Shown: positions 28,747 to 45,215 of the stretch, in pieces
How positions within the stretch are numbered: the stretch's first letter is position 1
Layout: each line of letters starts with the position of its first letter
DNA from: a marine group bacterium Sva0996 bin134
GTDB taxonomy: Bacteria > Actinomycetota > Acidimicrobiia > Acidimicrobiales > Bin134
DNA: 64,000 bases
Assembly (NCBI GenBank): GCA_002239105.1
Contig: MPNQ01000006.1
Span: forward strand, 69,880 to 133,879
Direction of reading: 5' to 3'
Made by a program: the position numbers and the translations under genes
The notes under the pieces: model-generated
Database searches by the model: none
Seen by the model: the letters and a program-made list of their open reading frames with translations, nothing else
What the model was told of the DNA's origin: nothing

Positions 28747-29136
28747 TCACCAAAGAACCTGGACGGGGAACTCTCGGAACGCGGCATCTCTGGTCACTAA
28801 CACAAGCGATTCCAACTCCGCTTGGGCTGCCAGCATCCGGTCGAACGGGTCCCGGTGATGGGACTTATAGCTGCCAGCGCGCAGTCCGTGCTGGTAGGTG
28901 ACCGGCAAATGCCGCATCGATGCGTCTATCACGAACTCGTTGAATCGCAACACAGCGCCTTTATATTCAGGCAGCCGGCCGAGCCGAAACTTGGTGGCCA
29001 CTTCCCACGCGCTCGCCGCGCTAACGAAGACGTCGTTTCCCGAATCCCTCAGCGCTTCTTCCGCACTCGGCGACAACGCCGGATTCTCCGACCACCACCA
29101 CAGCAGCGCATGAGTGTCGAGCAGCAGGTCACTCAC
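28747..29136 (-). CDS. vapC: PIN-domain ribonuclease toxin
   Basis: ORF 28747..29217 trimmed to GTG 29136, which overlaps the antitoxin stop (GTGAGTGA). LLLDTHALLWW, SAASAWEV and HRDPFDRMLAAQA are PIN acidic-residue contexts. Confidence 0.8.
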   Translation of the reverse strand: MSDLLLDTHALLWWWSENPALSPSAEEALRDSGNDVFVSAASAWEVATKFRLGRLPEYKGAVLRFNEFVIDASMRHLPVTYQHGLRAGSYKSHHRDPFDRMLAAQAELESLVLVTRDAAFREFPVQVLW

Positions 29137-29374
29137 CTGAGTACGCGCCCTCCCACGCTGCAAGCTCCTCTTCTGGCAGCGGCTCAAAAAACTCCGGGCC
29201 CAACTCAAGTCCAGCAAGCTGCCCGGATCGCCTCTTTTCGCGTGGCGGCAGCGGCATCAGCCGAGCATATGGCTTGCCCGCTTTGGCCAAGATGATCTCT
29301 TCGCCTCCATGGGCTCGTTCCAAAAGCTTCGACAAATGGGTTTTTGCCTCGTGAACATTGACCATCTCGGTCAT
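29129..29374 (-). CDS. Phd/YefM-type antitoxin
   Basis: MTEMVNVHEAKTHLSKLLERAHGGEEIILAKAGKPYARLMPLP. GGAGGA (rc of 29381-29386) lies upstream. Confidence 0.8.
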   Translation of the reverse strand: MTEMVNVHEAKTHLSKLLERAHGGEEIILAKAGKPYARLMPLPPREKRRSGQLAGLELGPEFFEPLPEEELAAWEGAYSGE

Positions 29375-29411
29375 GATTGATCCTCCTGCCTGGTAGTTTG
29401 CACTTGTGAAT

Positions 29412-29445
29412 ATGACTTAGTCCGATGACTAGACTAATTATGACA
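29412..29445. promoter_or_regulatory. repeat-rich AT-rich divergent control region (candidate antitoxin operator / jet promoter)
   Basis: ATGACT (29412-17), ATGACT (29425-30) and ATGACA (29440-45) are direct repeats. TTAGTC (29417-22) forms an inverted repeat with GACTA/GACTAA (29427-37). The region lies between the divergent phd-vapC and jetC starts. Confidence 0.3.
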
Positions 29446-29473
29446 ACTCACTGCGTCAATAGAATGCGAGGGA

Positions 29474-32400
29474 GTGATCTTTGCCCTGGCCAAATTGTCA
29501 CCCCCTTCCACTAACTTGCCCGGTGTGGCCGATGCAGGGACGCGAGTAGTGGGCGAATCCTCTGCGGGTATTGACGTAACCCGCCAGCGATGGCGGCTGA
29601 ACCGCGCCGGCATCGTCAACGTGTACCAGTACCAGGATGAAGTGCTGCATTTCAGAGGCGGCCGGCTGCTTTTGCGGGGGGTGAACGGCTCGGGAAAGTC
29701 AACTGCAATGAACATGCTTCTGCCGTTCCTTCTCACTGCCCGGCAGGGCCGCATCGACGCAGCCGGGGAGCAGAGCGGAATACTCAAGTCTTGGATGCTG
29801 AACGGCCGTGACGATGCCCAGCCGGTCGGCTACCTGTGGATCGAGTTCAAAAGGCGAGGCGATTTCCTCGTGTGCGGCTGCGGCATCAAGGCGAGCCGAT
29901 CCTCGGACACGGTAACCACCTGGTGGTTCATCACTTCCAAGCGGCCGGGCATCGACTTCCGGCTGGTCGAGCAGAACATCCCCCTCCCCACCGAGGGACT
30001 GCGAGCCGCCCTAGACGGGGACTTGGTGTTCAACCACCGCCAGCGCCGCGACTACCGAGCCGAGGTCGAGCGCCGCCTGTTCAACGGGGCATCCATTGAT
30101 CAGCACATCGGGCTGATCAACGTGGTCCGCAACCCCCGGGTCGGTGACCGCATCGACGTGGAACTTCCCCAACACCTGATCGACGCGCTACCGCAGTTGT
30201 CGGAGCAGGCGTTGGCCGAAGCTGCTCAACCACTCGACGACCTAGAGGAGCACCGCGGCAACGTCGCCGAGTTGGACCAAACGCTAAAGTCAGTCCGCGG
30301 CCTACTCGACGTGTACCAGGCCTACTGCGTGACCGAGCTCCGCCAACGGGTGGCCGACGGCAACAACCGACTCGATATCAAGCAGAACCGCTCGCAAGAA
30401 GAGGCCCGAGCGCAACAGGAGGCGGCAGCCGCCCAGGTAGAAGTAGGCCGGCTCGATGATGAAATCTCCAAACTGGAGGACGACTCCCGGCAACTGACCA
30501 GTGAGGTAGCGGCCTTGGAGGAGTCGCAGATTTACCGCGACGGCCAAGAGCTCGACGCCTTGCGCCAACTAGTGGCCAACCTCGAGAGCCAGCAAGTGAG
30601 CGCGGCAACACGGGTCGCTGACCACACCAAGCGAGTCGAGCGCTCCGCCCGCGAGCTGACCCAAGCCCGACAGCAGAGCCAAGACGACGCCAACAAGCTC
30701 AATGCCGAATTGGCCGCCGCGACCGAGTTGGGACAGCGCTGCCGGATCGACCGGCAGCCACCCGGCCCGGTGGCACTGGATGAAACCGATCTGGACGGCG
30801 CCAACTTGTCTTGTCCGACCGAGAACTTCGATTCCGAGGCGATCGGTCGCCAAATTGCCACCGCCAACGGGTCGGTGCTCAACCGGCGGGCCGATGTCGA
30901 AAAGGTTGACACCGCCCTGGCCAGCCTCGAATCCGCAGAGCAGCAGTTGAGCCTGGCGGAATCGGCCATGCAAATGGCGGCCCATGCGTCCGAGGCTGCG
31001 TCCCGGCGCTTGGCGGAACAGCACCAGCGCCTTGGCGATGCCCGGCGGGAGTGGACTGTCCAGACCCGGCAATGGGCGGTCGCGATTCAGCCGCTTTTGG
31101 ACAAGGCCAGCATCAACGCTCCAACTATCGCCGCGTTTGCCTCGTCCGGTGCCGACGACCGCGAATCGACTGTCGTTGACCGCCAAACCGATCCGTTGGG
31201 GACAACAAGCACCGGCCCGGCAGCAGGCAGCCGAGAAGCCGAGCAAACCGTTCTGCTGTCCGAAGCCGAGGCTCTCGTCGGCCACTGGCGCGATGCAGTG
31301 GCGGCGGTCGATCAGCGGCTCCTCGTCGAATGGGCGGCTCTCGAGGAGGCACAGGCGCAGTTCGACGAGCTTGCCGCTCGATCCGAGCCCGAGCCACCCC
31401 GGCTGGAGTGGCAAACTGGCGCCGATCACTGCCTCGCCGACCTGATCGATTTCGCGCCCCATCTCGACGAACGCGAGCAAGCATCTCTCGAAGCCGCTCT
31501 CTACGCCTCCGGGCTACTCTCAGCCAGTCTGGGCGACGACTCCGCGGTGGAGCTGGCCAACGGCGAGTTGGTTGCCCTCGTCGCCGGGGGCGTTTCCCAC
31601 CCGCTCAGCGAGCATCTCACGGTGACCGTGCCCGACCGGCTGATCGGTGAGGTGGATGAGGGCTTGGTCGCCAAGCTGCTCGAATCCATCTCATGCGATC
31701 TGTCGAGCAACGCCTCTACCGCCGTTTCGCTCAACGGCACCTTCTGGGTGGGGTCGCTCCGCGGTCACCATACCAAAGGGCAAGCCGAGTTCGTCGGAGG
31801 GACTGCCCGCCGCGCTGCTCTGGACCGCGCCCGCCGGGAAGGCGGCGATTACTTGGCTCAAGCCCAGGCTGTGGTCTCCGCCAGCGAGGCTGAGAAGGCC
31901 GAGTGCCAGGCATCACTCGACCAAGCTCGGCGGCACCTGTCAAGTGTCCCGCCCACAAGCGAGATCGTTGCCGCATCCGCTCAGGTCGATGCCGCCACCG
32001 CCGCGTCTGACGAGGCCGAGAGCGAACGGGCCGCGGCCGCCAAGCGGGCTGCCGAGGCCGAAGACCGCTCGATCCGTGCCTCAAACGTCCTGCAACAAAC
32101 GGCGACAACGTTGGCACTGCCCGCAGACCGCGGCGGCCTGGCTCATCTCTCCACCGAGCTAGGTGATCTTCAGGCGTCCTTGGACCGGTGCGGTGCCCTG
32201 CTCGACGCTCTAGGGCGTTCAGTCGAAGGCTGGCGCTATGCGGTCGCCCGTTGGCGGACAGAAGTCGACGACCTCGATGCCGAGAAAGCCGCGGAGCGCG
32301 CCATCCAGGCCAAATACCACCGAGAGCACACCCGCCTGGCCACCATTGAGAGCAGCATCGGCGCCGACTACGCCGATATCTTGGAAGCCCGCGATCTCTG

Positions 32401-33769
32401 CCGAAGCAAGTTGGAAGAAGCAGAAGCCCGCTTGCCAATCATCCGAAATGAGCGCGACGAAGCCGTCGGACGACAAGCTGACGCGCGAGCCGCAGCCAGC
32501 ACCGCCGCCGACCGACGAGTCGCGGCCGAGCAGGCGTGTGAGGAAATGCGTCAATCGCTGGCCACGACGTTGTCGGTGCCAGGACTTCGTGCTGCCGTAG
32601 CCGGACCCCACCATCCGGCTGCCAGGCCGGTTGCCTCGACTGCGACTGGTGCCGAGGGTCTGCACGAGCAGATCGAGACGGTCGAAAACCTGTTGGCCTT
32701 CGATCCGGCCGGCGATGCCGCAGCAGCATCCTCAACCCCTTCGCCACAGTCACAAGACCCCGCGTCTGCCGACAAGGCCGACATTGCCGTGGTCACAGCC
32801 GACGGGGTCCGGCAGTCGCTAAGGCAGCGCCGAGACGCACTAGGCGCCGGCTGGGATGCAGATACCCGCCAGCCCGATCCCAAACAGCCGCTCTCCATAG
32901 AGGTGACCGGCCCACTGGGCAAATCACCGCTAGCCGAGGCAGCACAGACGGTGGCTGAGCAGCACCAACGACTCGCGGGCCTGCTCAGCCATAAGCAAGA
33001 CACCGCCCTTCGCGAGCTGTTGCAGGGACTGGTCGCCCGCGAGGTGGCGAAGAAGGTCCGCGGGGCACAGCGGCTAGTCGAGCTGATGAATCAGCGGTTG
33101 GGCACGGTAACGACGGCTCACCGTGTTGGCGTGCGGCTGCGGTGGCGGCGCTCTCCCGAACTCGACCAGGCAACCGCCCGCATGGTCGATCTGCTCGCGA
33201 CCCTCCCCGACTTGCGAACCGAAGACGACGAGCAGGAGCTGCGCCGGACGCTGTCCGACCGGCTGAACGAGGCTCGGGCGCTGCAACCCGACGTGCCCTA
33301 TCGACAGCTCATCGCCGACACGCTCGACTACAAGAAATGGCACGATCTGTCGGTGATGCTGAGCCGACCGGGCAGCAGCGACGTCAAGCTCGGGCGCAAC
33401 ACCCCACTGTCAGAGGGCGAGAAGAAGCTGGTCACCTACCTGCCGCTGTTCGCTGCCGTGGCCGCGTCCTACGACGCACTGGCTGAGCGGGACAGCTCAT
33501 CGAGCGACATGCCACCGGGTATCGCCCGCTTCATCCTGCTTGACGACGCGTTCTCCAAGGTGTCCGAAGACAACCATGATGCGCTGTTCGGGCTGCTCGT
33601 CGCTTTGGATCTCGATCTGATCGCCACCAGTGAGCGGCTGTGGGGCACGCACCGCAGCCTCCCCGAACTGGCGATCACCGAGGTCGTGCGGGATGCGAGC
33701 CTCAACACAATCCTCCTCGAGCACTACCGATGGGACGGCGCCACCCTAGAGCTCCGGGACACGGCATGA
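29474..33769 (+). CDS. jetC: Wadjet JetC-like SMC/ABC ATPase (TIGR02680-like)
   Basis: 1431 aa. Walker A LLLRGVNGSGKSTAMNMLLPFLL, more than 900 aa of Ala/Glu/Arg/Leu-rich helical middle, signature-like LSEGEKK, Walker B RFILLDDAFSKV. Start uncertain: GTG 29474 has no spaced SD, and in-frame GTGs occur at 29525 and 29549. Confidence 0.85.
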   Translation: MIFALAKLSPPSTNLPGVADAGTRVVGESSAGIDVTRQRWRLNRAGIVNVYQYQDEVLHFRGGRLLLRGVNGSGKSTAMNMLLPFLLTARQGRIDAAGEQSGILKSWMLNGRDDAQPVGYLWIEFKRRGDFLVCGCGIKASRSSDTVTTWWFITSKRPGIDFRLVEQNIPLPTEGLRAALDGDLVFNHRQRRDYRAEVERRLFNGASIDQHIGLINVVRNPRVGDRIDVELPQHLIDALPQLSEQALAEAAQPLDDLEEHRGNVAELDQTLKSVRGLLDVYQAYCVTELRQRVADGNNRLDIKQNRSQEEARAQQEAAAAQVEVGRLDDEISKLEDDSRQLTSEVAALEESQIYRDGQELDALRQLVANLESQQVSAATRVADHTKRVERSARELTQARQQSQDDANKLNAELAAATELGQRCRIDRQPPGPVALDETDLDGANLSCPTENFDSEAIGRQIATANGSVLNRRADVEKVDTALASLESAEQQLSLAESAMQMAAHASEAASRRLAEQHQRLGDARREWTVQTRQWAVAIQPLLDKASINAPTIAAFASSGADDRESTVVDRQTDPLGTTSTGPAAGSREAEQTVLLSEAEALVGHWRDAVAAVDQRLLVEWAALEEAQAQFDELAARSEPEPPRLEWQTGADHCLADLIDFAPHLDEREQASLEAALYASGLLSASLGDDSAVELANGELVALVAGGVSHPLSEHLTVTVPDRLIGEVDEGLVAKLLESISCDLSSNASTAVSLNGTFWVGSLRGHHTKGQAEFVGGTARRAALDRARREGGDYLAQAQAVVSASEAEKAECQASLDQARRHLSSVPPTSEIVAASAQVDAATAASDEAESERAAAAKRAAEAEDRSIRASNVLQQTATTLALPADRGGLAHLSTELGDLQASLDRCGALLDALGRSVEGWRYAVARWRTEVDDLDAEKAAERAIQAKYHREHTRLATIESSIGADYADILEARDLCRSKLEEAEARLPIIRNERDEAVGRQADARAAASTAADRRVAAEQACEEMRQSLATTLSVPGLRAAVAGPHHPAARPVASTATGAEGLHEQIETVENLLAFDPAGDAAAASSTPSPQSQDPASADKADIAVVTADGVRQSLRQRRDALGAGWDADTRQPDPKQPLSIEVTGPLGKSPLAEAAQTVAEQHQRLAGLLSHKQDTALRELLQGLVAREVAKKVRGAQRLVELMNQRLGTVTTAHRVGVRLRWRRSPELDQATARMVDLLATLPDLRTEDDEQELRRTLSDRLNEARALQPDVPYRQLIADTLDYKKWHDLSVMLSRPGSSDVKLGRNTPLSEGEKKLVTYLPLFAAVAASYDALAERDSSSSDMPPGIARFILLDDAFSKVSEDNHDALFGLLVALDLDLIATSERLWGTHRSLPELAITEVVRDASLNTILLEHYRWDGATLELRDTA

Positions 33770-35322
33770 CCGACGTCGCCCGTTTCAGCGGCCCCAACAG
33801 CGATCCGGCTCAGGCCCGGTACTTGTTCCGCTACCTGGGCGGTGACGAGTGGCTCGAGTACCGGGCAATCCTCAGGGTGTTCGCCAGCACGTTCTTCGCT
33901 GAGTTCACTCCTCAGGAGGTGGAATCCGCGGTTTCCCCCGCCGGCATCGATCCATCCGTGGTTGCCGACCGGATGGAGAGCCTCCGCCGCTGGGGCAACC
34001 TCACCGTGTCATCATCGGTGGGCAACCCATCGAATCTCGACGACTACTACCGCAAGCGCAACCGCTACCTCATCTCCCGCGCCGGGCAGGAGGTGTTCGA
34101 TCTAGTCGAGCAGGTTCTAGCCAATGTAGATGAGGTCGGCGATGTGCAGGCCGGTCGGCTGCGTGACCTTCATCTCGCCCTCCAGACGCTGAATGAGCAG
34201 AGCAAGGTCGGCTTCGACCGCGTCGACAGCCAAGACCTGGCCGACGTGGTTAGGAAGGTGTTCGATCTCCACAAAGCCTTCACCAACGAGCTGACGCAGT
34301 TCTTCACCGAGCTCAACCAGTGGCAGAGCCGCTATGACCTAAATGCCGACGAAGTCCAGTTCTTCGCCGGCGTGCTGGTGGATTACGTCCACGAACAGCT
34401 CACCGAGATCGAGCGCATGACCCGGCCGATTGCCCGGACACTAGAGGAGATCCTCCCGCAGGTTGCGGCCCTGCTTCCTGCGCTGCGATCCGGCTTGGCC
34501 GTGCGAGTGGAGGAGGCTGGACTGGCCCAGAACGTGGCTGTGCGGCGGCTAGCGGGCACGGAGGTTGCCGACTGGAAGCACCTTGAGGCATGGTTCTCCG
34601 CACAGCCGGGTCAGGCGTCAAGGCTCGACGAGCTGACCCGACAGGCGGTAGCCGCGGTGCGCACTCTTACCGCCAATGTCACCCGGCTGTCGCGGGTCGG
34701 GCTCGGCGCGGCATCAAGACGATCTGACTTTGTGCGACTGGCGGGCTTCTTCGACCAGGCCGCTTCCTCCAACGAAGCCCATCAGATAGCGGCTGCTGCG
34801 TTTGGGCTAGGTTCGTGCCGCCGATTGGGGGAGCAGTCCGCCGACTCGGACGACCCTGCTCCAACAATCACGCCATGGAAGGATGCGCCCCGCGCCATCG
34901 TCCCGGTGGCGATGCGGGAGCGCGGCGAGACCGCCCCGCGCGGCCTGACGACTCCGATCAATGACCGAAGGCATGAGCGAGAACTATTGCGCCGCCACCG
35001 AGAGCTCAACCGCGTCGCCCGCGAGACCGCAGCAGCCGACCTGTTGGCCTGCGCGAGCGACGACGGGCAGATCGACGGTGCCCGGTTGTCGGCTGCCTCG
35101 TTCTCAATGCTGCGCGACCTCATCAGCCGTTCGGGATTGCGGATCGGCATCGACTCCGACCGCCGGTTTGCAACCGAGGTTGGAATCCGTTGCGAGGTGC
35201 AGCGGAACGAGGATGCCCGCACCGTCGTCCACTGTCCCGAGGGCAAGCTCTCGATGCACGGACTCATCGTCATCATCACCCCGGCAACAGAGAACAGCGC
35301 TGCCACCTCGGCATCCCCATGA
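33766..35322 (+). CDS. jetA: Wadjet JetA-like protein (TIGR02677/DUF2397-like)
   Basis: ORF 33640.. trimmed to ATG 33766, overlapping the jetC stop (ATGA). The N-terminus ARYLFRYLGGDEWLEYRAILRVFASTFFAEFTPQEV matches my memory of the DUF2397 N-terminal pattern. Confidence 0.7.
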   Translation: MTDVARFSGPNSDPAQARYLFRYLGGDEWLEYRAILRVFASTFFAEFTPQEVESAVSPAGIDPSVVADRMESLRRWGNLTVSSSVGNPSNLDDYYRKRNRYLISRAGQEVFDLVEQVLANVDEVGDVQAGRLRDLHLALQTLNEQSKVGFDRVDSQDLADVVRKVFDLHKAFTNELTQFFTELNQWQSRYDLNADEVQFFAGVLVDYVHEQLTEIERMTRPIARTLEEILPQVAALLPALRSGLAVRVEEAGLAQNVAVRRLAGTEVADWKHLEAWFSAQPGQASRLDELTRQAVAAVRTLTANVTRLSRVGLGAASRRSDFVRLAGFFDQAASSNEAHQIAAAAFGLGSCRRLGEQSADSDDPAPTITPWKDAPRAIVPVAMRERGETAPRGLTTPINDRRHERELLRRHRELNRVARETAAADLLACASDDGQIDGARLSAASFSMLRDLISRSGLRIGIDSDRRFATEVGIRCEVQRNEDARTVVHCPEGKLSMHGLIVIITPATENSAATSASP

Positions 35323-36521
35323 ACCCCGCGTCTGCTCCAACAAATTCGGCTGACCCTCAACAGAAGCTGGACATCCGCACCGCGGCCCGTCATCTCGTCC
35401 GATATCCCCTCGTGTTGGCCGAGAACGATCCGGAGATGCTCCTGCTGATCCGCCGTCACGAACAGGCCCTCGATAGTTTATTCACCCGGCGGTTCGGATA
35501 CCGCCTTCAAGTGACCGCCGACACCGCCCGTCTGTTCAAATCGTCGGTGGTCGCCCACCGGCGTCCGCTGCTGACCGCAACCAGCCAAGGACGACCGTTT
35601 TCCCAGCGTGAGTACACAATGCTCGCCCTATCCCTGGCCGCGGTCGCCGCCGGACCGAGCGTGATCAGCTTGCGCGATCTTATTCATGAGGTCCGCTCCG
35701 CTGCCGCTGATGCCGACATCACCCTCACCGAGGAGCCAACCGACCGCCGAGCCCTGGTCACCGCCTTGAAATGGATGATCCAGAACGGCATAGCGAGCGA
35801 GATGCACAATCAAGTCGACCGCTATGCCGCCGACGAAACCGCCGATGCCGTGCTTAGCGTTCGCCCCGACCGCGTCGCGCTGCTGCCGCTCCCGGCGCTG
35901 GCCCGATCAGAGACTCCCGAGCAGGTACTCGACCGGTCCGATCAGCGACTGTCGTCACGAGCGTGGATGCGCTCTGTCTTGCTGGAAGAGCCGGTGCTGT
36001 TTCGCTCCGACCTCACCGACAGCGAGTGGTCTGAGCTTCGGCAGCGGCTGGGGGAAGAAGCCGCTGTTTTCGACGACATGTTCGGTCTGCACCTCGAATC
36101 CCGCGCCGAGGGCATCATGGTTATCGACCCCGAGAACGAGCTGACCGACAGCCGCTTCCCGCGCAGCGGAACCCTCGGCCACGCCGCCCTGCTGCTCATA
36201 GACCGGCTTGTCCACCTAGATCGAACTCCAGCCGATGTGCCGCCCGGCAGCGGCACTGACGACGATCTCAACTCGGTCAACGCCGGCCGCGTCCCGTTCT
36301 CCCGTACCGATGTCATCGACGTGGTGGCCAGCCTGGCCGCTGAGCACCGCCCCCGCTACTGGTCACAAGATGCCGACAACCCTGAACGCCTCACCGTCGA
36401 TGTCCTTGATCTGCTCTGCGACCACCGCCTAGTGGAAGTGGACGGCGATGTGGTCTGGCTGCTGCCGCCTGCCTGGCGTTACTCGTTAGACGTCCAATAC
36501 CAGCAAGAGTCGCTGCTTTGA
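35319..36521 (+). CDS. jetB: Wadjet JetB-like protein (TIGR02678/DUF2398-like)
   Basis: ORF 35190.. trimmed to ATG 35319, overlapping the jetA stop (ATGA). AARHLVRYPLVLAENDPEMLLLIRRHEQALDSLFTRRFGYRLQVTADTARLFK. Confidence 0.7.
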   Translation: MNPASAPTNSADPQQKLDIRTAARHLVRYPLVLAENDPEMLLLIRRHEQALDSLFTRRFGYRLQVTADTARLFKSSVVAHRRPLLTATSQGRPFSQREYTMLALSLAAVAAGPSVISLRDLIHEVRSAAADADITLTEEPTDRRALVTALKWMIQNGIASEMHNQVDRYAADETADAVLSVRPDRVALLPLPALARSETPEQVLDRSDQRLSSRAWMRSVLLEEPVLFRSDLTDSEWSELRQRLGEEAAVFDDMFGLHLESRAEGIMVIDPENELTDSRFPRSGTLGHAALLLIDRLVHLDRTPADVPPGSGTDDDLNSVNAGRVPFSRTDVIDVVASLAAEHRPRYWSQDADNPERLTVDVLDLLCDHRLVEVDGDVVWLLPPAWRYSLDVQYQQESLL

Positions 36522-37744
36522 GCTCCCGCCCCGTCCCAGAGTCGCTGCTCTCCCCTGGCCTGGGCGAGGTCTGGTCCGCCGCACGCCACCGACTCGACCG
36601 CTACGGACCCCAACGGCGAGGCTCCATCGCCAGCCCGGGGCTCGACCCGGCGAGCACCCTGGCCATGGAATCGCTGCTGGGACGAAAACCGGCCAAGCGG
36701 CTGGATCTCCAAGAGTTGGAGGCGGCACTGGTGGCCCGGGCCATCGGCCGCGATCTCTGTGATGCGCTCACCTGCCTTGGCCATCCTCCATCGGCTGAAG
36801 CCGCCCAACGGCGATCTGACCGCGCCCGCGCTCAGGAAGCCCGAGAGTCATTGCACTGCGCCGTCGCAGTCTGGGACGAGCCGTGGGCCGCGGCCTGGGC
36901 CGATGCGGTTGTGGGGGCCGGACTGCTACGGGATTTCGACGGTGAAAGCGCCGCCCGTCTCGCCACCGATGTTCGCCGCCTGCTCGACCATATCGAGCAC
37001 CCCCAATTCTCCGCCTCCAGCCGCACAGAGATTGCCGCCACCCTCTACGGGTCGGCGCACGCACTCGACTCGGGCACAAGGCGGGCCAGCGCGGCGACCC
37101 ACGCTTTACGCCATCGGAACGGCCCTCTCGGTGAGCGAGAACTCTGGGAGGCAGCCGGCATCCTGCCTGATCGGGTCTCGGCCCCCGCGCTTGTCTGGTC
37201 GCTCCCGACCGACGGCGCTTCGCCGTTGGACATGCACGTCCGATTTGCCCTCCATGCTGGGCTGCCCCTTCACATCAGCTTGTTTGCCCTGCGAAAGCAC
37301 CCCATCTCTGTAGATGCCGGCACCCCTGTGCTCGTCGTTGAGAACCCGAGACTGGTCGAGGCCGCGGCCGAGTGCAGCCTTCCAGCCTGCGTGATCTCTT
37401 CCAACGGCAACCCCTCCACCGCGGTCACCACCCTGCTGCGCCAACTCCAGCAAGCCGAGGCATCCCTCTGGTATCACGGCGACTTCGACTCGCCGGGCAT
37501 AGCCATCTGCCGCCGAATGCACGAATTCGGCTGCTCCCCGTGGATGATGGATGCCCGCGATTACGCCGACGCAATCGGGCAAGCGAAGGAGTCAGATGTG
37601 CAGCTCATGTCAGATTCCAAGGAATGCGGCCCAACCCCATGGGATCCAAAGCTCCAACCGGCGTTTGATCACCACCGCCTCATCATCCACGAAGAGTTCG
37701 TGCTCGATGCCGTTCTCAACCGATTCGGCCGACTCAACCAATAG
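36518..37744 (+). CDS. jetD: Wadjet JetD-like Toprim nuclease subunit (TIGR02679/DUF2399-like)
   Basis: The TTG start overlaps the jetB stop (TTGA). N-terminal LLSPGLGEVWSAARHRLDRYG. C-terminal VLVVENPRLVE...LWYHGDFDSPGIAICRRM is Toprim-like. Confidence 0.8.
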   Translation: MSSRPVPESLLSPGLGEVWSAARHRLDRYGPQRRGSIASPGLDPASTLAMESLLGRKPAKRLDLQELEAALVARAIGRDLCDALTCLGHPPSAEAAQRRSDRARAQEARESLHCAVAVWDEPWAAAWADAVVGAGLLRDFDGESAARLATDVRRLLDHIEHPQFSASSRTEIAATLYGSAHALDSGTRRASAATHALRHRNGPLGERELWEAAGILPDRVSAPALVWSLPTDGASPLDMHVRFALHAGLPLHISLFALRKHPISVDAGTPVLVVENPRLVEAAAECSLPACVISSNGNPSTAVTTLLRQLQQAEASLWYHGDFDSPGIAICRRMHEFGCSPWMMDARDYADAIGQAKESDVQLMSDSKECGPTPWDPKLQPAFDHHRLIIHEEFVLDAVLNRFGRLNQ

Positions 37745-38517: not shown

Positions 38518-38990
38518 ATGCGTACCAGTTTCGCTATCTCGGCTGAGGCCGCTGGATACTGCTCGGTGAGATGGTCTCCCACACCTAGTTCGAAGCCATC
38601 GTGATGGTAAGGCGGCGCCATCGTGGTCCCCACCAGAGACCACTCACCCCGGGTCGAGGCCCCCATCCATGTGTGGCCCGGAACCACCACGCAAGGCCTC
38701 TCTCCCCCACCCAAGTCGTCGCCCAAAACCGGCCGATCTACCTTCCCATCCGCCCCCAGCAGCAGCATCTCCACCGCTGCCCCCGCATAGTGATGCCACA
38801 ACTCCGGCCCAGCCAGCCGGTGCATAGCCGAGAAGTCCCCAGGCTGAAGCAGGAAATAGATGGCCGTGCTCTTGTCATCCCGCCAAATCTCCCGCCACAC
38901 GCCTCCTTCCTCCGACAATGGCTCCAACCCCAGCATGGCCACTACCTCCGCGCCGGTCAGCCCCGCCAAGTCCTCCCTCTGCCCCATCAC
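38514..38990 (-). CDS. cupin domain protein (DUF985-like)
   Basis: 158 aa. LEPLSEEGGVWREIWRD...IYFLLQPGDFSAMHRL...ELWHHYAG is the cupin beta-barrel pattern. Confidence 0.65.
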   Translation of the reverse strand: MMGQREDLAGLTGAEVVAMLGLEPLSEEGGVWREIWRDDKSTAIYFLLQPGDFSAMHRLAGPELWHHYAGAAVEMLLLGADGKVDRPVLGDDLGGGERPCVVVPGHTWMGASTRGEWSLVGTTMAPPYHHDGFELGVGDHLTEQYPAASAEIAKLVRM

Positions 38991-39088
38991 CCACCGACCC
39001 TAGCTTTCCCACTGCTTAGATCTGATCGCAGTGCGCACAAGGAATGACACTGCCTCCATCCCACCTGGCTCTATGGAATCTGCTTCGT

Positions 39089-39454
39089 CTAGCTGGAACT
39101 CCTTTGAGCCTTTTCGCAGGGCGGACCCCAAGGGCCTCTGACAGGGAGAGCCTTGAAATTCCACAGCCCTTTCTTGGGCGAGGCATCACCTCGTTTGCTG
39201 TTCGCAAGCCAGTCGCGATTCTTCCGGTTCGATGGCGGGTTGAGACTCAAGAACTTGATGAGGTCGATTGCCGCAGCCTCAACAAGCTCAGCGGTCTTCT
39301 CATCCATGCCATGTCGGAGGACGAAACTCTGGTCTCTCTTGTGGTCCCAGACCCGGTTGCCACTGCCCTTCCCTACGTACACCTCCCCGGTTTCCGTGTT
39401 GTAGGTGAAGTACACATAGTGAGCGAGGTCATCTTGCTCTTTGCGAGTGAACAT
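39089..39454 (-). CDS. GIY-YIG nuclease-domain mini-protein (possibly a truncated remnant)
   Basis: AHYVYFTYNTETGEVYVGKGSGNRVWDH...RHGMDEKTAELVEAAAIDLI fits the GIY...YVGKGxGxR...H...E pattern. The last ~45 aa are low-complexity basic sequence with no recognisable domain. Confidence 0.5.
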   Translation of the reverse strand: MFTRKEQDDLAHYVYFTYNTETGEVYVGKGSGNRVWDHKRDQSFVLRHGMDEKTAELVEAAAIDLIKFLSLNPPSNRKNRDWLANSKRGDASPKKGLWNFKALPVRGPWGPPCEKAQRSSS

Positions 39455-39726
39455 CCCTGGACTCCTTTCTGTTCACGATGTGGCCATGAAACCTAGATCG
39501 GGCCCAGATAACAAGACAGTTGCAATTCAGTTGGACTCGGGCGACAGTGGAATTGCCCGCCTGTACTGGTCGGGCGGGCAAACGCGAGTCCCGGAGTGCC
39601 AGGCCGAGGACCCCTACAGGAGGGTCGACTAGGACGGGAGCCGGGGCTTCCGCACTCTGACGGACGGTTGCTCGACGGCTGTCTGGATTCCCCAAAATTG
39701 TCACAGCCTAGAAGTAGGGTCGTGTT

Positions 39727-40677
39727 GTGGATTCAAGAGGCAACTCTGAGGGCGCTGAAAGTCACCAGATCCCCCTTCGCGGAAACGAATCCCCCGCCAT
39801 TACGTCAAATCTCCAGCCAGGGCTACATACTCGACTGGATGTGGGTGTAGATGGTCCGCTGGATGAGCTGAGTGGCCCCCTATTGGTGTGTGGCCCGGCG
39901 ATCGAAGCCTTGGGATTGCTCCCAGATGGGTGTGTGCAGACTGTAGTGACATCGCCGCCGTACTGGTCGCTGCGGGATTACTCGGCCGAAGGCCAGATTG
40001 GCCGCGACGACGCTTTGGGGGAATACGTCAAGAGCATCGTCATGGCGTTCGACCAGGTACGCCGGGTGCTGACCGACGATGGCACGGTATGGCTGAACGT
40101 GGGCGACTCCTACACCTCAGGAAATCGCAGGTACCGGGCGCCTGACCGCAAGAATCGGGCTCGGGCTATGGCGGTTCGGCCTCCCACGCCAGAGGGATTG
40201 AAGCCGAAAGACCTGATCGGCGTTCCGTGGCGGCTGGCATTCGCCCTCCAGGATGCGGGCTGGTGGCTGCGCTCCGAAGTCATCTGGTACAAGCCCAACG
40301 CCCACCCCGAGTCGGTCTCCGACCGCCCCACTAAGTCTCATGAAACCGTGTTCTTGCTATCCAAGAGCCAGGACTACTACTACGACACGTCAGCAGTGAA
40401 AGGCCCGAACGGACGCCGGCTACGAACTATGTGGGACATCAACACTGAACCTCGCAGAAAAGAGGCTGGTGGAGTCGAAGATCACCCGGCCGTCATGCCG
40501 ATGACCCTGGCTCGCCGCTGCATCCAAATCACGAGCCAGCCGGGAGACACCGTCCTCGATCCCTACGCCGGCTCTGGCACGAGCCTTATTGCCGCCCAAG
40601 AACTCGGCCGCAACTGGGCGGGAATCGAGTTGAACCCCACCTACGTCGACCTAATCGAGCGCCGGGTCAACGAGTGA
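39727..40677 (+). CDS. beta-class DNA methyltransferase, SPPY type (probable N4-cytosine)
   Basis: Catalytic motif IV VVTSPPYW comes first and the SAM motif I DTVLDPYAGSGTSLIAA lies near the C-terminus, which is the beta permutation. The true start is probably an internal GTG near 39844 (VGVDGPLDEL...). Confidence 0.85.
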   Translation: MDSRGNSEGAESHQIPLRGNESPAITSNLQPGLHTRLDVGVDGPLDELSGPLLVCGPAIEALGLLPDGCVQTVVTSPPYWSLRDYSAEGQIGRDDALGEYVKSIVMAFDQVRRVLTDDGTVWLNVGDSYTSGNRRYRAPDRKNRARAMAVRPPTPEGLKPKDLIGVPWRLAFALQDAGWWLRSEVIWYKPNAHPESVSDRPTKSHETVFLLSKSQDYYYDTSAVKGPNGRRLRTMWDINTEPRRKEAGGVEDHPAVMPMTLARRCIQITSQPGDTVLDPYAGSGTSLIAAQELGRNWAGIELNPTYVDLIERRVNE

Positions 40678-41450
40678 GCCAGCGGTACGACAAATTCATC
40701 GACCAGGCCAACCTCAAGGCCAGCATTGAATCCCTCACCCCAATGGGTGTCAGGTTCGTGGGCCGGATCATTGACTCGTTATCATCCCCACTCCAGGCCG
40801 AAACCTCTGACACCTGGCTAGGACAGACGCCTGGATGGATCGAATACTTCGGCCTCTCCATCTCCGTTCATCATGGAACCACCACAGAGCCTCTCGGCCT
40901 TGTCAGCTTCGAAGTCGCATTCCGCAACGCCTGTGAGGCGGTTGGCTGGACAGTCGACGAGCCGGGATCAGCCACACAGCGCTTCGTGGACATGGCGGTC
41001 CAAACCGACGATAGTGAAGAGCGAAGGCTCTCCCTGAAATCCACCGCCGCCCAAAGGTTGTCCGAAACCACCGCCCACATCTCCAAGCTCACCGAGGCCG
41101 CCTGGATCCAAGATGTCCGAAATGCCAGAACCAGGCGGGACCACACTCTCGACCTATTCCGTCAATACCGATCCGCCGTAGACGCCATCATCATCCTCCG
41201 AGCATTCCGCCCCGACCGCGCCGCCGTCCCAACCAAGTACCAACTCCTCGAAATCCCCACCGATATCTTCGCCACCCTCGAAGATGCCCCCCTAGCCGCG
41301 TTCGCCGCCGATGGCCCCACTATCGACTGCACTTACCATGGCGATCCAGCTGCTGCCCGCGTCTCCCTCGACCGCGCCGACGCCAAGATCACCATCAAAC
41401 AAATCAAACTCTCAGCCTGCACCCTCCACGCTGAATGGCAGATCACTTAG
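40674..41450 (+). CDS. hypothetical protein, putative cognate type II restriction endonuclease
   Basis: The GTG start overlaps the methyltransferase stop (GTGA 40674-40677). 258 aa with no family recognised by eye. There is only a weak PD-(D/E)xK-like candidate (FVDMAV...RRLSLKS). Confidence 0.4.
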   Translation: MSQRYDKFIDQANLKASIESLTPMGVRFVGRIIDSLSSPLQAETSDTWLGQTPGWIEYFGLSISVHHGTTTEPLGLVSFEVAFRNACEAVGWTVDEPGSATQRFVDMAVQTDDSEERRLSLKSTAAQRLSETTAHISKLTEAAWIQDVRNARTRRDHTLDLFRQYRSAVDAIIILRAFRPDRAAVPTKYQLLEIPTDIFATLEDAPLAAFAADGPTIDCTYHGDPAAARVSLDRADAKITIKQIKLSACTLHAEWQIT

Positions 41451-41525
41451 GCCTTCCCAATCATCTTCGAGCAATTTACAGATCACGCCAAAAGAAACTC
41501 TGCCCTGCCCCACCACTACATCGAC

Positions 41526-41557
41526 GATGCTTCAAGAACCGCGACTCTTGAAGCATC
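41526..41557. terminator. bidirectional hairpin between convergent operons
   Basis: Perfect 12-bp stem, GATGCTTCAAGA (41526-37) with TCTTGAAGCATC (41546-57), and an 8-nt loop. It lies between the stops at 41450 (+) and 41569 (-). No clean U-tract. Confidence 0.55.
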
Positions 41558-41568
41558 TAACATATAAT

Positions 41569-44016
41569 TCAATTCCTTGGTAAAACAAGATTGTAAAAGA
41601 TCTGGCTACAATCACAACGCAATGCGTCAGGCTGTTTTGGCCCACTTATGTAGACCCATCCCTGACATTCAGAGCATTGGAATAATGATAATAGATCTGT
41701 TGCAGCTCCGACTAAGTCCGCAACATCCGAAGAATAAAAATTGGCCCACTCATTGTAATGTATAGCCTTGTTGAGCACCCAATTGTCATCCTCGTAATCT
41801 GTGACAATGTTCATGCGCTTCTTATCCAATTGATCCAACGCCCTCTTCGACTCTTCGTCATTCCACGAATTGGCAATGTTACGGGCTTTACCAATCAATT
41901 TGCCATACCTCCCAACGACTGCAGAATACAGATCTCCTAAGTCGTAGTCTCCATCCGACCGGTACGGAATTGGAGCCCGCAGACCATTAGCAAGTTCAGC
42001 CATCGCGAATTCCAAGTGATTTCGTAACGTGAATGAAGCATCTGAAATGTTCCCGACACTTATCTGATGTTCGATCTTCTGCCAAACCTCTATCTGCTCT
42101 TCATAGGTTGGCCCTGTATCAATTGTCCAGCTATGAAACGTGGCACACGACTGAGCGGTAACCAGCCCATGATGTCGCATCTGCGAGGCCCACACTCTGT
42201 CGTGCGTAGTGATTATGAACTGGGTATTTGGAAATCTAGTTTTCAATAGGCGGCAAAATTCTTTTCGATGACCTGAATCGACAGACATAACCACATCATC
42301 CAATATTGCAAGAGAAAACGTTTCACTATGTAAATGATTCATCAAGGCGAGATAAAGACAAACCCCCAGTGCGTCTTGATGTCCTTCACTGTGATATGCC
42401 GAAGGGGGATAGTACCCTTGCCCAAAAAAGTCTACAGTCAATCCGAGTTTGCCCTCCTGGGGACTAAACTGGGCACGAAAACTGGACTCATCATCGGAAT
42501 TCAACAGACTATAGAACAGGCTAAAGTCACTTTCAACTTCTTCGTACAGTTGTGTGAGCACAGACTGTGCTTCATCACAATATACATCGTAAATTGAATT
42601 GGCGATAAGCGCTACACCCTCTGCATGTGAAGCCCTGTTCAACGCTTCCACATATTTCATGTAGCGATCTTGGGCAATAGTCAAAAATGTCTGCGCGTGG
42701 TGTTTTGCGTCTAAATCGGGCATGGCATCAATTGCAGCTTTCAGCTTTTCGAGAGACAGCACTAACTCGTTAGGTATAGCCATCCACCCCGTTGAAAGTC
42801 TATCTTGTCGGCGCAAAGCTCCTTCTACAGTCTGTAGGTCATGTACCAATTGGGAGAGATCCTTTGCCCATGTGTCCAACAAAGCCTTCAGGTCGCTAGC
42901 ACCCTCTCTTGACGCGATATTGACAACAGGACCAATAAGACCTTCAATTGAAGCAACACCATTAGCAATATTCTCTGCCGCTTCCTTGAACTGGATCTGA
43001 CGAGCTTCAGTATCCTCAAGTTGCATTATCTTAGTCCTCAAGTGAGTCTCAAGGTCACTTTGTGATTCCCAGCTAACGTCGCAAAATGGGCAGTTGGCCG
43101 TGTCAATGAGTTCGACTCCCTGTTGCAGGAAAGGTAACTGTTTGAGATGTAGGAGTATACTACGGTCCTTATCTATCTCCTTGCACACCCCGACCAATGT
43201 TGCAATTGATGGCGCCAATAGATCAGACCCGCGGAGGCGTTCTAGAAGTGAATTGATATCGTTCTGGGCAGATACCTTGTTGAAAGGCTTAACTTCCTGT
43301 TCAACTTTAACCCCGTCATCCAAAGGAGTACTTTCGCTCAAATGAGATAAGTCTTCCAAACCCAGTACTTTCCGTTCATCATTACACGCTTGGACTGCGA
43401 TTTCCTCTTCAAAATCGTCTATTCCCAAGTGCGTACAAAGAGACTTCGCTGCGTCAGTTGCGTTTTGGAGTTTGGTCTTGTGATCCCCTTTTATCTTGTT
43501 TTGTACTGACTTTAATATGGCTCGAGTCGCTCCAATGTTGTCCAATCTCAAGAGGGCTTGGATTTCCTTAGATCGCTCTGTGGGTTCCGCCAAGATAAAT
43601 TTTATTACTTCACGCCTCGACAGCACAATCTCAGGATGACTCGCCACCTCTCTAAGAACTGTTCGTATTTTATCGTCGTCAGGATTCAATAGTGGTTGAT
43701 CCGGATCTTTGATCGACCGCGTGACAGTAACTACACGATCAAGGTCCAACAGTCTGATTTCTAGAGAGACCTGGGAATGTTCAAGGGGATTCTGTTGCAA
43801 TATATGTGGACCATGCCTCCGCACAGATAATGCTCCCGTGCCCTTACCCTTCAGTCTGGAAATGTTTCCTGTCAATCCGAATTCAATAGCGTCTACTACC
43901 CCGCTTTTTCCAGAACCGTTTGGGCCACATACTGCAAAAGATTTGGCATTCAAGTTCAATTGCAGGTCTCGGATACCTCTTAGTTCCTGTATTCTTACTT
44001 TCTCGATCTTTATCAT
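41569..44016 (-). CDS. Rad50/SbcC-like ABC ATPase with CxxC hook and C-terminal RloC/PrrC-like (R-x3-E...H) region plus zinc ribbon
   Basis: 815 aa. Walker A GPNGSGKS (31-38), helical middle with C309-P-F-C312, SEGHQ (543-547), Walker B SLAILDD (568-574), TTHD (603-606), R665-NHL-E669, H753, and C781-x2-C784-x16-C801-x-C803. The ATPase call is solid; the RNase inference is tentative. Confidence 0.75.
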   Translation of the reverse strand: MIKIEKVRIQELRGIRDLQLNLNAKSFAVCGPNGSGKSGVVDAIEFGLTGNISRLKGKGTGALSVRRHGPHILQQNPLEHSQVSLEIRLLDLDRVVTVTRSIKDPDQPLLNPDDDKIRTVLREVASHPEIVLSRREVIKFILAEPTERSKEIQALLRLDNIGATRAILKSVQNKIKGDHKTKLQNATDAAKSLCTHLGIDDFEEEIAVQACNDERKVLGLEDLSHLSESTPLDDGVKVEQEVKPFNKVSAQNDINSLLERLRGSDLLAPSIATLVGVCKEIDKDRSILLHLKQLPFLQQGVELIDTANCPFCDVSWESQSDLETHLRTKIMQLEDTEARQIQFKEAAENIANGVASIEGLIGPVVNIASREGASDLKALLDTWAKDLSQLVHDLQTVEGALRRQDRLSTGWMAIPNELVLSLEKLKAAIDAMPDLDAKHHAQTFLTIAQDRYMKYVEALNRASHAEGVALIANSIYDVYCDEAQSVLTQLYEEVESDFSLFYSLLNSDDESSFRAQFSPQEGKLGLTVDFFGQGYYPPSAYHSEGHQDALGVCLYLALMNHLHSETFSLAILDDVVMSVDSGHRKEFCRLLKTRFPNTQFIITTHDRVWASQMRHHGLVTAQSCATFHSWTIDTGPTYEEQIEVWQKIEHQISVGNISDASFTLRNHLEFAMAELANGLRAPIPYRSDGDYDLGDLYSAVVGRYGKLIGKARNIANSWNDEESKRALDQLDKKRMNIVTDYEDDNWVLNKAIHYNEWANFYSSDVADLVGAATDLLSLFQCSECQGWVYISGPKQPDALRCDCSQIFYNLVLPRN

Positions 44017-44018
44017 CC

Positions 44019-44186
44019 CTATGCTGATTCCTCTTGTTGGGTTAAGATCGCAATCAACTTCTCTGTCTCCGGCTTTTCACCCATTGATAATTGCTCCCGC
44101 AGTGATACAATAACTTCATCGGACAAGTCATGGTCGTCGCGGATCCGTTGCAGGGTTCTATCCAGTATTTCGTGTTCAATGGACAT
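44019..44186 (-). CDS. 55-aa acidic helical protein (not in ORF track), putative partner of the ATPase
   Basis: My translation: MSIEHEILDRTLQRIRDDHDLSDEVIVSLREQLSMGEKPETEKLIAILTQQEESA (14 D/E against 6 K/R). GAGAGG lies 6 nt upstream of ATG 44186. The TAG stop is 2 nt before the ATPase ATG. Same low GC as the ATPase. Confidence 0.45.
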   Translation of the reverse strand: MSIEHEILDRTLQRIRDDHDLSDEVIVSLREQLSMGEKPETEKLIAILTQQEESA

Positions 44187-44276
44187 CGACTACCTCTCTG
44201 CAAATGTGCAGTGTGCATCACATTATTGCCGTGCGGTCCTAATTCTGCCCAACCCAAAATGAGTCGATGAACGGCG

Positions 44277-45215
44277 TTATGGCTCCAGGACAACCTTGAT
44301 GGCGCCGGAGGCGCGGTCGGCGGCGGTGGCGAAGGCTTCGGCGGGGGCGTCTAGGGGGAAGCGGTGGGTGATGACGGCGTCGGGGAGCTCGGGGAGCTGG
44401 GCCAGGGCGGCGGCGGCGACATCCATGTCGCGGGTGGGGCCGTAGCGGCCGTACATGGAGGAGGGGACCACGGTGATCTCCTTCATGCTCAGCTCTATAC
44501 CGGGCATCTCAACGGGGTCCCAGTAAGAGCCCAGGATGACGATCTTTCCACCGGGCCGGCACTTCTTGGCGGCGTCGGCCAGAGCTGAGGCGGTACCAGC
44601 GGCCTCTACGACGATGTCGTAGGGCTCATCGGTCATCGGCGCGGCCCCCAGGCGCTCGGCGGCCTCCTTTTGGGCGTCGTGGCGGGCTGAAATAGCTGTC
44701 TCGCACCCGGCGAGGCGGGCCACGGCCAGCGCGGTCTGGCCCACGGCTCCGCCGCCGATGACGGCCACCCGCATGTCGCCCCGCAATCCGGCCAAGCGGA
44801 AGCCGTGCACCGCGATGCCCAGCGGCTCCACCAGGCATGCGTCCCGGGCATCGGCCCCCGACGGCAGGGGAACGATAGCCTCGGGCCACATGAGCACCTC
44901 GTCGGCCATGCCGCCATCGCGGGAGATGCCGGCGATGTCGGTCAGGGTGACCGGGCAGCGGTTGTAGTCGCCGGCCAGGCAGATCTCGCAGGTGCCACAG
45001 CCGTGGATGGGCTCGATGGCCACCGGGCGGCCGTCGTCCAGCCAACCAGCGAACTCGTGGCCAATGGTGAAGGTGTTGAGCATCCCCAACTCGAGCATGT
45101 GCAGGTCGGAACCGCATACCCCCGCCGAGGCCATCTTGATCCGGACGCCCTCGCCGTCGGGAGGCGGTACCTCCACAGTCGCGGGCTGGCCGTCGACGCA
45201 TCGCACTGCTCTCAT
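44277..45215 (-). CDS. zinc-dependent alcohol dehydrogenase (MDR family)
   Basis: GVCGSDLHM, GHEFAG, VAVIGGGAVGQTA. Confidence 0.85.
   Translation of the reverse strand: MRAVRCVDGQPATVEVPPPDGEGVRIKMASAGVCGSDLHMLELGMLNTFTIGHEFAGWLDDGRPVAIEPIHGCGTCEICLAGDYNRCPVTLTDIAGISRDGGMADEVLMWPEAIVPLPSGADARDACLVEPLGIAVHGFRLAGLRGDMRVAVIGGGAVGQTALAVARLAGCETAISARHDAQKEAAERLGAAPMTDEPYDIVVEAAGTASALADAAKKCRPGGKIVILGSYWDPVEMPGIELSMKEITVVPSSMYGRYGPTRDMDVAAAALAQLPELPDAVITHRFPLDAPAEAFATAADRASGAIKVVLEP

Follow-up and report, generated by a model that had tools for sequence, protein, structure and literature searches.

A type II Wadjet operon with the gene order jetC-jetA-jetB-jetD in a sponge-associated Acidimicrobiales bacterium

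Systems that act against circular plasmids have been described in a range of bacteria, and they share a common logic in which a sensor made of an SMC protein, a kleisin and a KITE subunit is combined with a Toprim nuclease. Examples are type I Wadjet or MksBEFG, as in JetABCD of Escherichia coli GF4-3 and MksFEBG of Corynebacterium glutamicum, and EptABCD of Mycobacterium smegmatis. In the type II system of Neobacillus vireti (nvJET-II, PDB 9QE0/9QE1), the proteins assemble into A1B1C2 motor units, and circular but not linear DNA is cleaved in a reaction that depends on ATP and on JetABCD (bioRxiv 10.1101/2025.03.10.642339). The operon structure has been given as conserved in the form mksFEBG, equivalent to jetA-jetB-jetC-jetD or A-B-C-D (PMC10123090), and the definition of type II Wadjet used by PADLOC requires the full set of jetA, jetB, jetC and jetD (PMC9252829). 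Here, we describe a locus of this kind in a stretch of 64,000 nucleotides (nt; 'the window') from contig MPNQ01000006.1 of assembly GCA_002239105.1, the host of which is a sponge-associated member of the Acidimicrobiales close to Candidatus Poriferisocius. It comprises four contiguous jet genes at window positions 29474-37744, arranged in the order jetC-jetA-jetB-jetD (C-A-B-D), and the full set is therefore present.

The locus is very probably an intact chromosomal type II Wadjet, of the JetABCD / MksBEFG / EptABCD kind, organized as a single operon in which the C-A-B-D order arose once, from an A-B-C-D ancestor belonging to the Streptomyces-type branch. This assessment draws on gene content, motifs, folds, gene order and distribution, and purifying selection, each of which was observed directly. 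A preliminary description, made from the sequence alone, had recognized a Wadjet of the TIGR02677-80 flavour, and this is upheld by profile searches, by the solved type II complex 9QE0 and by the fold of JetD. Searches with PADLOC and with TIGR02677, TIGR02678, TIGR02679, TIGR02680, PF09660, PF09661 and PF09664 were positive, TIGR02679 falling marginally under its cut-off, and chains of the N. vireti structure have counterparts in JetC, JetA and JetB. By comparison, the PADLOC models for type I and type III Wadjet gave only 17-27 bits with the jet products.

The four genes lie on the plus strand at 29474/29549-33769 (jetC), 33766-35322 (jetA), 35319-36521 (jetB) and 36518-37744 (jetD). The raw sequence contains the stop/start overlaps ATGA at 33766-33769, ATGA at 35319-35322 and TTGA at 36518-36521, and the list of open reading frames (ORFs) holds 29474..33769 (1431 amino acids, GTG start) and 36518..37744 (408 amino acids, TTG start), together with longer mechanical ORFs at 33640..35322 and 35190..36521 that enclose the ATG starts at 33766 and 35319. 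The four consecutive plus-strand frames with 4-nt overlaps noticed at the outset are thus present in both. Full translational coupling had also been proposed; the overlaps exist at all three junctions, and coupling itself may be read from them. Co-transcription of the jet genes as one operon is likewise suggested by this layout. Among 69 complete C-A-B-D loci, 59 have a 4-nt overlap at C->A, 43 have one at A->B and 39 have one at B->D, and it is notable that the best conserved of the three is the C->A junction, the one created by rearrangement. Since these overlaps recur at the same junctions, and since the hidden Markov model E-values of the four products range from 1e-43 to 1e-270, the operon is not a chance arrangement. 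The A-B-C-D relatives in Streptomyces, Ralstonia and Pseudonocardia loci show the same kind of stop/start overlaps, which are therefore general to type II operons and not peculiar to this locus.

JetC is an SMC-like ABC ATPase of the TIGR02680 family, for which it scores 587 bits (cut-off 462.85) with positions 1-1353 of 1356 of the model covered. It matches the PADLOC JetC2 model PDLC00553 with 899 bits and SbcC_Walker_B in Pfam, and a direct search of the PDB finds N. vireti JetC (9qe0_A, E 5.8e-52), with matches in the head domain. [quoted passage not shown] The motifs that had been quoted for JetC and JetD are all present, their positions being read from the translations. With residues numbered from the 1431-amino-acid ORF that begins at GTG 29474, JetC has a Walker A motif GVNGSGKST at residues 69-77 (K75), a signature LSEGEKK at residues 1312-1318 (33407-33427) and a Walker B motif FILLDDAF at residues 1353-1360 (33530-33553), in which Asp1358 occupies the canonical Glu position. 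Across >100 loci, conservation extends to the Walker A, signature and Walker B motifs and to those of the Toprim domain.

An alignment of eight syntenic genomes across the divergent 5' region between vapB and jetC (29375..29548, described on the plus strand) revises the start of jetC. Even among genomes with about 90% identity, the GTG at 29474 is replaced (by GAT in locus L002 and by GCG in L001), and an indel of 1 nt occurs near 29527 in four relatives. All eight aligned genomes keep the in-frame GTG at 29549, with AGGGA/AAGGA 8-9 nt upstream of it; the Shine-Dalgarno-like AGGGA lies at about 29537-29541 in the window. Because the GTG at 29549 and its Shine-Dalgarno-like site are conserved and the GTG at 29474 is not, jetC probably starts at 29549 (29549..33769, 1406 amino acids), which corrects the preliminary description. 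A block of ~40 nt at about 29480-29520, TTGCCYTGGCCAAATTGTCACC...CTAACTTGC, is strongly conserved among the close relatives in the same alignment. A leaderless jetC transcript, from a TAGAAT box at 29461-29466 to GTG 29474, was considered and rejected, as the TAGAAT sequence and this GTG both lack conservation in close relatives.

The next two genes encode the kleisin and KITE subunits. The kleisin gene, jetA (33766..35322, plus strand), starts at an ATG overlapping the jetC stop, and its product of 518 amino acids belongs to DUF2397 / TIGR02677. It scores 178.6 bits against TIGR02677 (cut-off 165.85), 305.8 bits against PF09660 and 421 bits against PADLOC JetA2, and residues 22-483 match N. 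vireti JetA (9qe0_E) with an E-value of 1.6e-20. Also on the plus strand, jetB (35319..36521), with an ATG that overlaps the jetA stop, encodes a tandem KITE subunit of 400 amino acids (DUF2398 / TIGR02678) that scores 146.9 bits against TIGR02678 (cut-off 124.65), 247 bits against PF09661 and 299 bits against PADLOC JetB2. Searching JetB against the PDB with phmmer returned no match, but a profile of its homologues aligns residues 26-355 with residues 20-362 of 9qe0_D, almost end to end. In an AlphaFold2 (AF2) model, JetB consists of four winged-helix-like modules of helices and strands, and the best Foldseek match is again 9qe0_D (389 columns, E 2e-13). Matches to MukE and to type I JetB extend over no more than half of the JetB model, about 200-220 columns. 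The full-length match to 9qe0_D is as expected for the tandem KITE of ~390-400 amino acids that distinguishes type II.

The last gene, jetD (36518..37744, plus strand), has a TTG start that overlaps the jetB stop and encodes a CAP-Toprim nuclease of 408 amino acids (DUF3323 + DUF2399 / TIGR02679). Its matches to PF09664 (103.5 bits) and PF11796 (87.6 bits) are above the gathering thresholds, JetD_C gives 24.8 bits (threshold 22), and the PADLOC JetD2 model gives 315.6 bits. The motifs VVENPRLVE and YHGDFDSPGIA occupy residues 273-281 and 319-329; within them E275, N276, P277, H320, G321, D322, F323 and D324 do not vary among 35 homologues, the Toprim acidic residues being E275 and D322/D324. 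Neither phmmer nor a profile search matched JetD to any PDB entry, and only the fold comparison was informative. The AF2 model, with a mean predicted local distance difference test (pLDDT) of 89.3, has topoisomerase VI-A and Spo11, which share the CAP + Toprim fold, as its best PDB matches.

Set beside described systems, the operon has the same four subunit families as nvJET-II. The window JetC and JetA detect their counterparts by direct sequence search, JetB does so by profile and fold, and JetD shares the Toprim domain with its acidic residues. Identity is low, however (about 15% for JetB in the structural alignment), the gene order differs, and the window JetC is about 35-60 residues longer, with DD in Walker B and LSEGE in the signature where nvJetC has DE and SGGE. 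The closest sampled sister branch is formed by Streptomyces-type operons, for example on plasmids of S. chartreusis (NZ_CP108821) and Streptomyces sp. BB1-1-1 (NZ_CP134205). These share PDLC00541 as the best JetA2 model, the Walker B sequence LLDDAF and the 4-nt stop/start overlaps, but have the A-B-C-D order and a JetA that is 31-35% identical to that of the window. Type I systems differ from the window operon: their KITE is a homodimer of a ~240-amino-acid protein whereas the window JetB is a tandem fusion, the N-terminal (aCAP) region of their JetD differs, their order is mksFEBG, and the window products match PADLOC JetC1/JetD1 weakly (23-27 bits). MukBEF and MksBEF also combine an SMC-like ATPase with kleisin and KITE subunits, and each half of JetB has MukE as its next-best match by fold. 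They lack the JetD nuclease and act in chromosome organisation, whereas the window operon includes JetD and matches Wadjet-specific models.

Given that its products are homologous to those of the type II system reconstituted from N. vireti, the operon can be expected to follow the logic common to these systems. JetC as SMC ATPase, JetA as kleisin and JetB as one tandem KITE carrying four winged-helix domains would form A1B1C2 motor units, which would dimerize via the JetA kleisin. The complex would load on DNA and extrude loops in a process driven by ATP. On small circular DNA it would stall and enter a cleavage-competent state, and the stalled complex would recruit or activate the JetD CAP-Toprim dimer, leading to cutting of the plasmid; linear and very large molecules would be spared. 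Plasmid-specific cleavage by the products of this operon is thus predicted by analogy.

The order of the genes departs from the one in which Wadjet is usually drawn. We compared loci around relatives of JetA, 73 from genomes and 56 from metagenomes, together with four annotated type II loci on plasmids or chromids. The 69 genome loci that are complete all have the C-A-B-D order; the remaining four are truncated or rearranged, two of them within long contigs (L063, L066) and two at contig ends (L053, L040). Metagenome loci with a JetA >=44% identical to that of the window are all C-A-B-D or show a compatible truncation at a contig end, and those with a JetA <=37% identical are all A-B-C-D. The annotated Streptomyces, Ralstonia and Pseudonocardia type II loci read TIGR02677-78-80-79, which is A-B-C-D, as are all type II loci sampled from soil or peat metagenomes. 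C-A-B-D had been put forward as unusual. This is borne out against the canonical order of these relatives, but within its own sub-lineage C-A-B-D is the fixed norm. The survey of homologues therefore leaves the identification unaffected and makes the novelty one of the clade, and modest. The customary A-B-C-D order is absent here; that order is a descriptive convention, on which detection does not depend, and membership in the family stands. No description of the C-A-B-D order was found in the literature searched.

Several observations bear on the origin of this arrangement. In a pairwise identity matrix, computed without JetC, JetA identity is >=41.9% within the C-A-B-D group and <=35.5% between groups. 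A similar gap appears in a library of representatives at 50% identity, sampled as 282 representatives with E 1e-10 or better, where about six full-length JetA representatives fall at 41-55% and the next ones at <=35%. Neighbour-joining trees of JetA, JetB and JetD place the C-A-B-D loci in a monophyletic group with the Streptomyces-type A-B-C-D operons as sister, and both groups have the same best PADLOC JetA2 model, PDLC00541. The simplest reading is that jetC was relocated once to the front of the operon and that the new order then became fixed. The relocation could have come about by a tandem duplication of ABC and two subsequent losses.

It may be asked whether the SMC-first order is a neutral rearrangement or an adaptive rewiring of expression. 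In the adaptive case, A1B1C2 units would need JetC at twice the amount of the other subunits, and jetC would stand first with its own ribosome-binding site. Translation of jetA, jetB and jetD by termination-reinitiation via the 4-nt overlaps would then keep C at or above A, B and D, and the nascent kleisin would meet freshly made JetC heads. Part of this reading is that the C->A overlap, which is new to this order, is the best conserved of the three. If this were true, the SMC-first order, the Asp-for-Glu substitution in Walker B and LSEGE would together mark a distinct functional sub-type of Wadjet II in sponge symbionts across phyla. We consider adaptive rewiring speculative and unlikely.

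The closest loci are found on chromosomes of sponge-associated Acidimicrobiales metagenome-assembled genomes, including Candidatus Poriferisocius, with a JetA 91-94% identical to that of the window. In about 13 genomes at the level of Ca. Poriferisocius the operon is at the same place, with a hydrolase, a major facilitator superfamily transporter, a 3-hydroxyacyl-CoA dehydrogenase and vapBC on one flank and a short-chain dehydrogenase/reductase (SDR) gene on the other. Ratios of nonsynonymous to synonymous substitution (dN/dS) of 0.16-0.33 for the jet genes, measured against five relatives, indicate purifying selection; most of the flanking metabolic genes are under tighter constraint (mostly 0.04-0.18), the SDR gene giving 0.20-0.27. 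A plasmid origin was considered and rejected: the flanks are metabolic and chromosomal, and the replicons of relatives are chromosomes of 3-4 Mb. A megablast search of the operon against PLSDB gave no match at the DNA level.

As a whole, the C-A-B-D clade is mostly found in Acidimicrobiia, and also in the gammaproteobacterial Granulosicoccaceae, Ca. Azotimanducaceae and Ca. Rariloculaceae. The gammaproteobacterial loci are L024, L043, L059, L060, L062-L065 and L067, some of which are on multi-megabase long-read contigs. JetA of the Azotimanducaceae and Rariloculaceae is 62-65% identical to that of the window, within the Acidimicrobiia range. The presence of C-A-B-D operons in Gammaproteobacteria implies transfer across phyla, possibly in sponge or marine communities. 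When all ORFs lying up to 3.5 kb from about 95 C-A-B-D operons were clustered in search of a fifth accessory gene, none was shared beyond local synteny groups, so the operon appears as a self-contained module.

Some copies in the clade are damaged. In Ca. Poriferisocius aerobius (L005, 1548-7568), jetB and jetD are truncated, and a fused product of 775 amino acids is present in the protein database (P0010). There is apparently an insertion of ~1.6 kb in jetA of L061 (10001-13134) and one of ~1.7 kb in jetC of L022 (4090-9935), and only parts of the operon are left in L063 and L066. These damaged copies suggest that loss is ongoing in some lineages.

A number of results weigh against an intact and functional type II Wadjet. 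JetD scores 192.8 bits against TIGR02679, 3 bits under the cut-off of 196, and the confidence of the AF2 model of JetB is moderate (pLDDT 64). JetC carries LLDDAF and LSEGE, where N. vireti JetC has LDEAF and SGGE, and these non-canonical motifs may give it ATPase kinetics that differ from those of characterized systems. A scan for promoters and terminators around the operon found nothing useful; the sigma-70 consensus, for example, has no match in 29375..29548. Finally, the syntenic, core-like state of the operon in about 13 genomes is less typical of mobile defence islands.

Some of these results could speak for a domesticated condensin-like system that serves in chromosome organisation or repair as MukBEF does, with JetD as an accessory. 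The operon has a fixed chromosomal position among metabolic genes in about 13 genomes, it has diverged about as much as its flanks, and its ATPase motifs are non-canonical. We nevertheless regard domestication as very improbable. All four subunits are kept, including a JetD with intact Toprim residues, and the proteins fit the type II Wadjet models far better than those for SMC or Muk proteins, JetC scoring 587 bits with TIGR02680 against 29.5 bits with SMC_prok_B. A MukBEF or MksBEF system is an SMC-kleisin-KITE set without a Toprim nuclease, and here jetD is present, overlapping the jetB stop, and is retained throughout the clade. The four-gene module also occurs in unrelated contexts and across phyla, as expected of a mobile defence module, and it is dispensable, as shown by the decayed or interrupted copies in L005, L061, L063 and L066.

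The same ATPase motifs could mean that the operon is a non-functional or weakened remnant, given the Glu->Asp change in Walker B (LLDDAF for LDEAF) and the altered signature (LSEGE for SGGE). However, DD and LSEGE show next to no variation among about 110 C-A-B-D loci, and the Streptomyces-type A-B-C-D sister operons share DD (the Ralstonia-type JetC has DE), which points to a conserved and selected state. All reading frames are intact, and the dN/dS values of the jet genes reflect continued constraint. Decay of this kind is slightly less credible still than domestication, and an intact type II Wadjet remains the reading that we favour.

Upstream of jetC, on the minus strand, lies a vapBC-like pair (28747-29374) made up of a PIN toxin and a Phd/YefM-type antitoxin, the latter at 29129-29374. 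The toxin probably starts at GTG 29136, giving 129 amino acids and an 8-nt overlap with the vapB stop, and dN/dS for VapC in this frame is 0.11-0.42. The intergenic region between vapB and jetC (29375-29470) contains a repeated conserved motif, ATGACTTAGTC / ATGACTAGAC, at about 29411-29440, which could be an operator for the antitoxin. The reading in which Wadjet and the divergent vapBC form one functional unit, the toxin-antitoxin pair acting as regulator or back-up effector, is the least likely of all those considered, for although vapB, on the other strand, starts at a distance of 99 to about 175 nt from jetC and 12-14 syntenic genomes retain the pair next to the operon, the adjacency is limited to one synteny group, the neighbours differ at roughly 55 other C-A-B-D loci, and the clade as a whole shares no flanking family.

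The preliminary description had also placed the operon directly against this pair and near an island of restriction-modification (R-M) and ATPase genes. The adjacency is real, but it reflects local synteny only, and the downstream stretch is a variable hotspot. This variable stretch, at about 39.0-44.3 kb, lies downstream of the convergent SDR gene. Two unannotated ORFs come after the SDR gene (38601-39554). Relatives have orf148 (38601-39047) in a conserved but fast-evolving form, with 59-73% amino-acid identity, whereas none of the related loci has a counterpart of orf150 (39044-39496); neither matched Pfam or PADLOC. DNA synteny breaks at about 39030-39555. An N4/N6 DNA methylase gene (39727-40677) then overlaps a gene for a SmaI-like endonuclease (40674-41450; PADLOC REase_II, 50 bits). 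This type II R-M pair is found in some syntenic relatives; the endonuclease is missing in L002 and L068 and the whole pair is absent in L012. Scans of the window for tRNA genes and Rfam families were both empty.

On the minus strand of the same stretch is a gene for an SMC_N/AAA ATPase of 815 amino acids (41569-44016), the best PADLOC matches of which are LmuB (78 bits) and mad3 (65 bits), and which has a Cys-rich C-terminal tail without a family match. It is directly preceded by an ORF of 55 amino acids (44019-44186, minus strand). The segment that contains it (41451-44277, 2.9 kb) has a G + C content of about 46% compared with about 65%, and syntenic relatives lack it; a search for hallmarks of insertion around it gave no convincing terminal repeats. 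Full-length homologues of the ATPase (36-41% identity) are carried by plasmids of Rhizobium, Phaeobacter, Bradyrhizobium and other alphaproteobacteria, and at the one plasmid locus inspected, on pP88_b of Phaeobacter inhibens, the gene is likewise preceded by an ORF of 58 amino acids. It is possible that the ATPase and the 55-amino-acid ORF form an uncharacterized two-gene defence cassette that was recently acquired.

The locus is an ordinary member of type II Wadjet, from a sub-lineage that is already well sampled and automatically annotated, and the understanding of the Wadjet mechanism is unchanged by these results. For annotation, they illustrate that PADLOC-style tools call type II Wadjet whatever the gene order. 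Their evolutionary value is modest and lies in the recognition of a monophyletic type II sub-lineage with fixed C-A-B-D order, Walker B DD and LSEGE, represented by roughly 100 public loci, mostly from sponge-associated and marine Acidimicrobiia with copies in Gammaproteobacteria. This clade offers a natural experiment to ask if the subunit ratios of SMC complexes are set by operon order and translational coupling. Within the Ca. Poriferisocius group, the findings suggest that plasmid restriction is a stably inherited trait.

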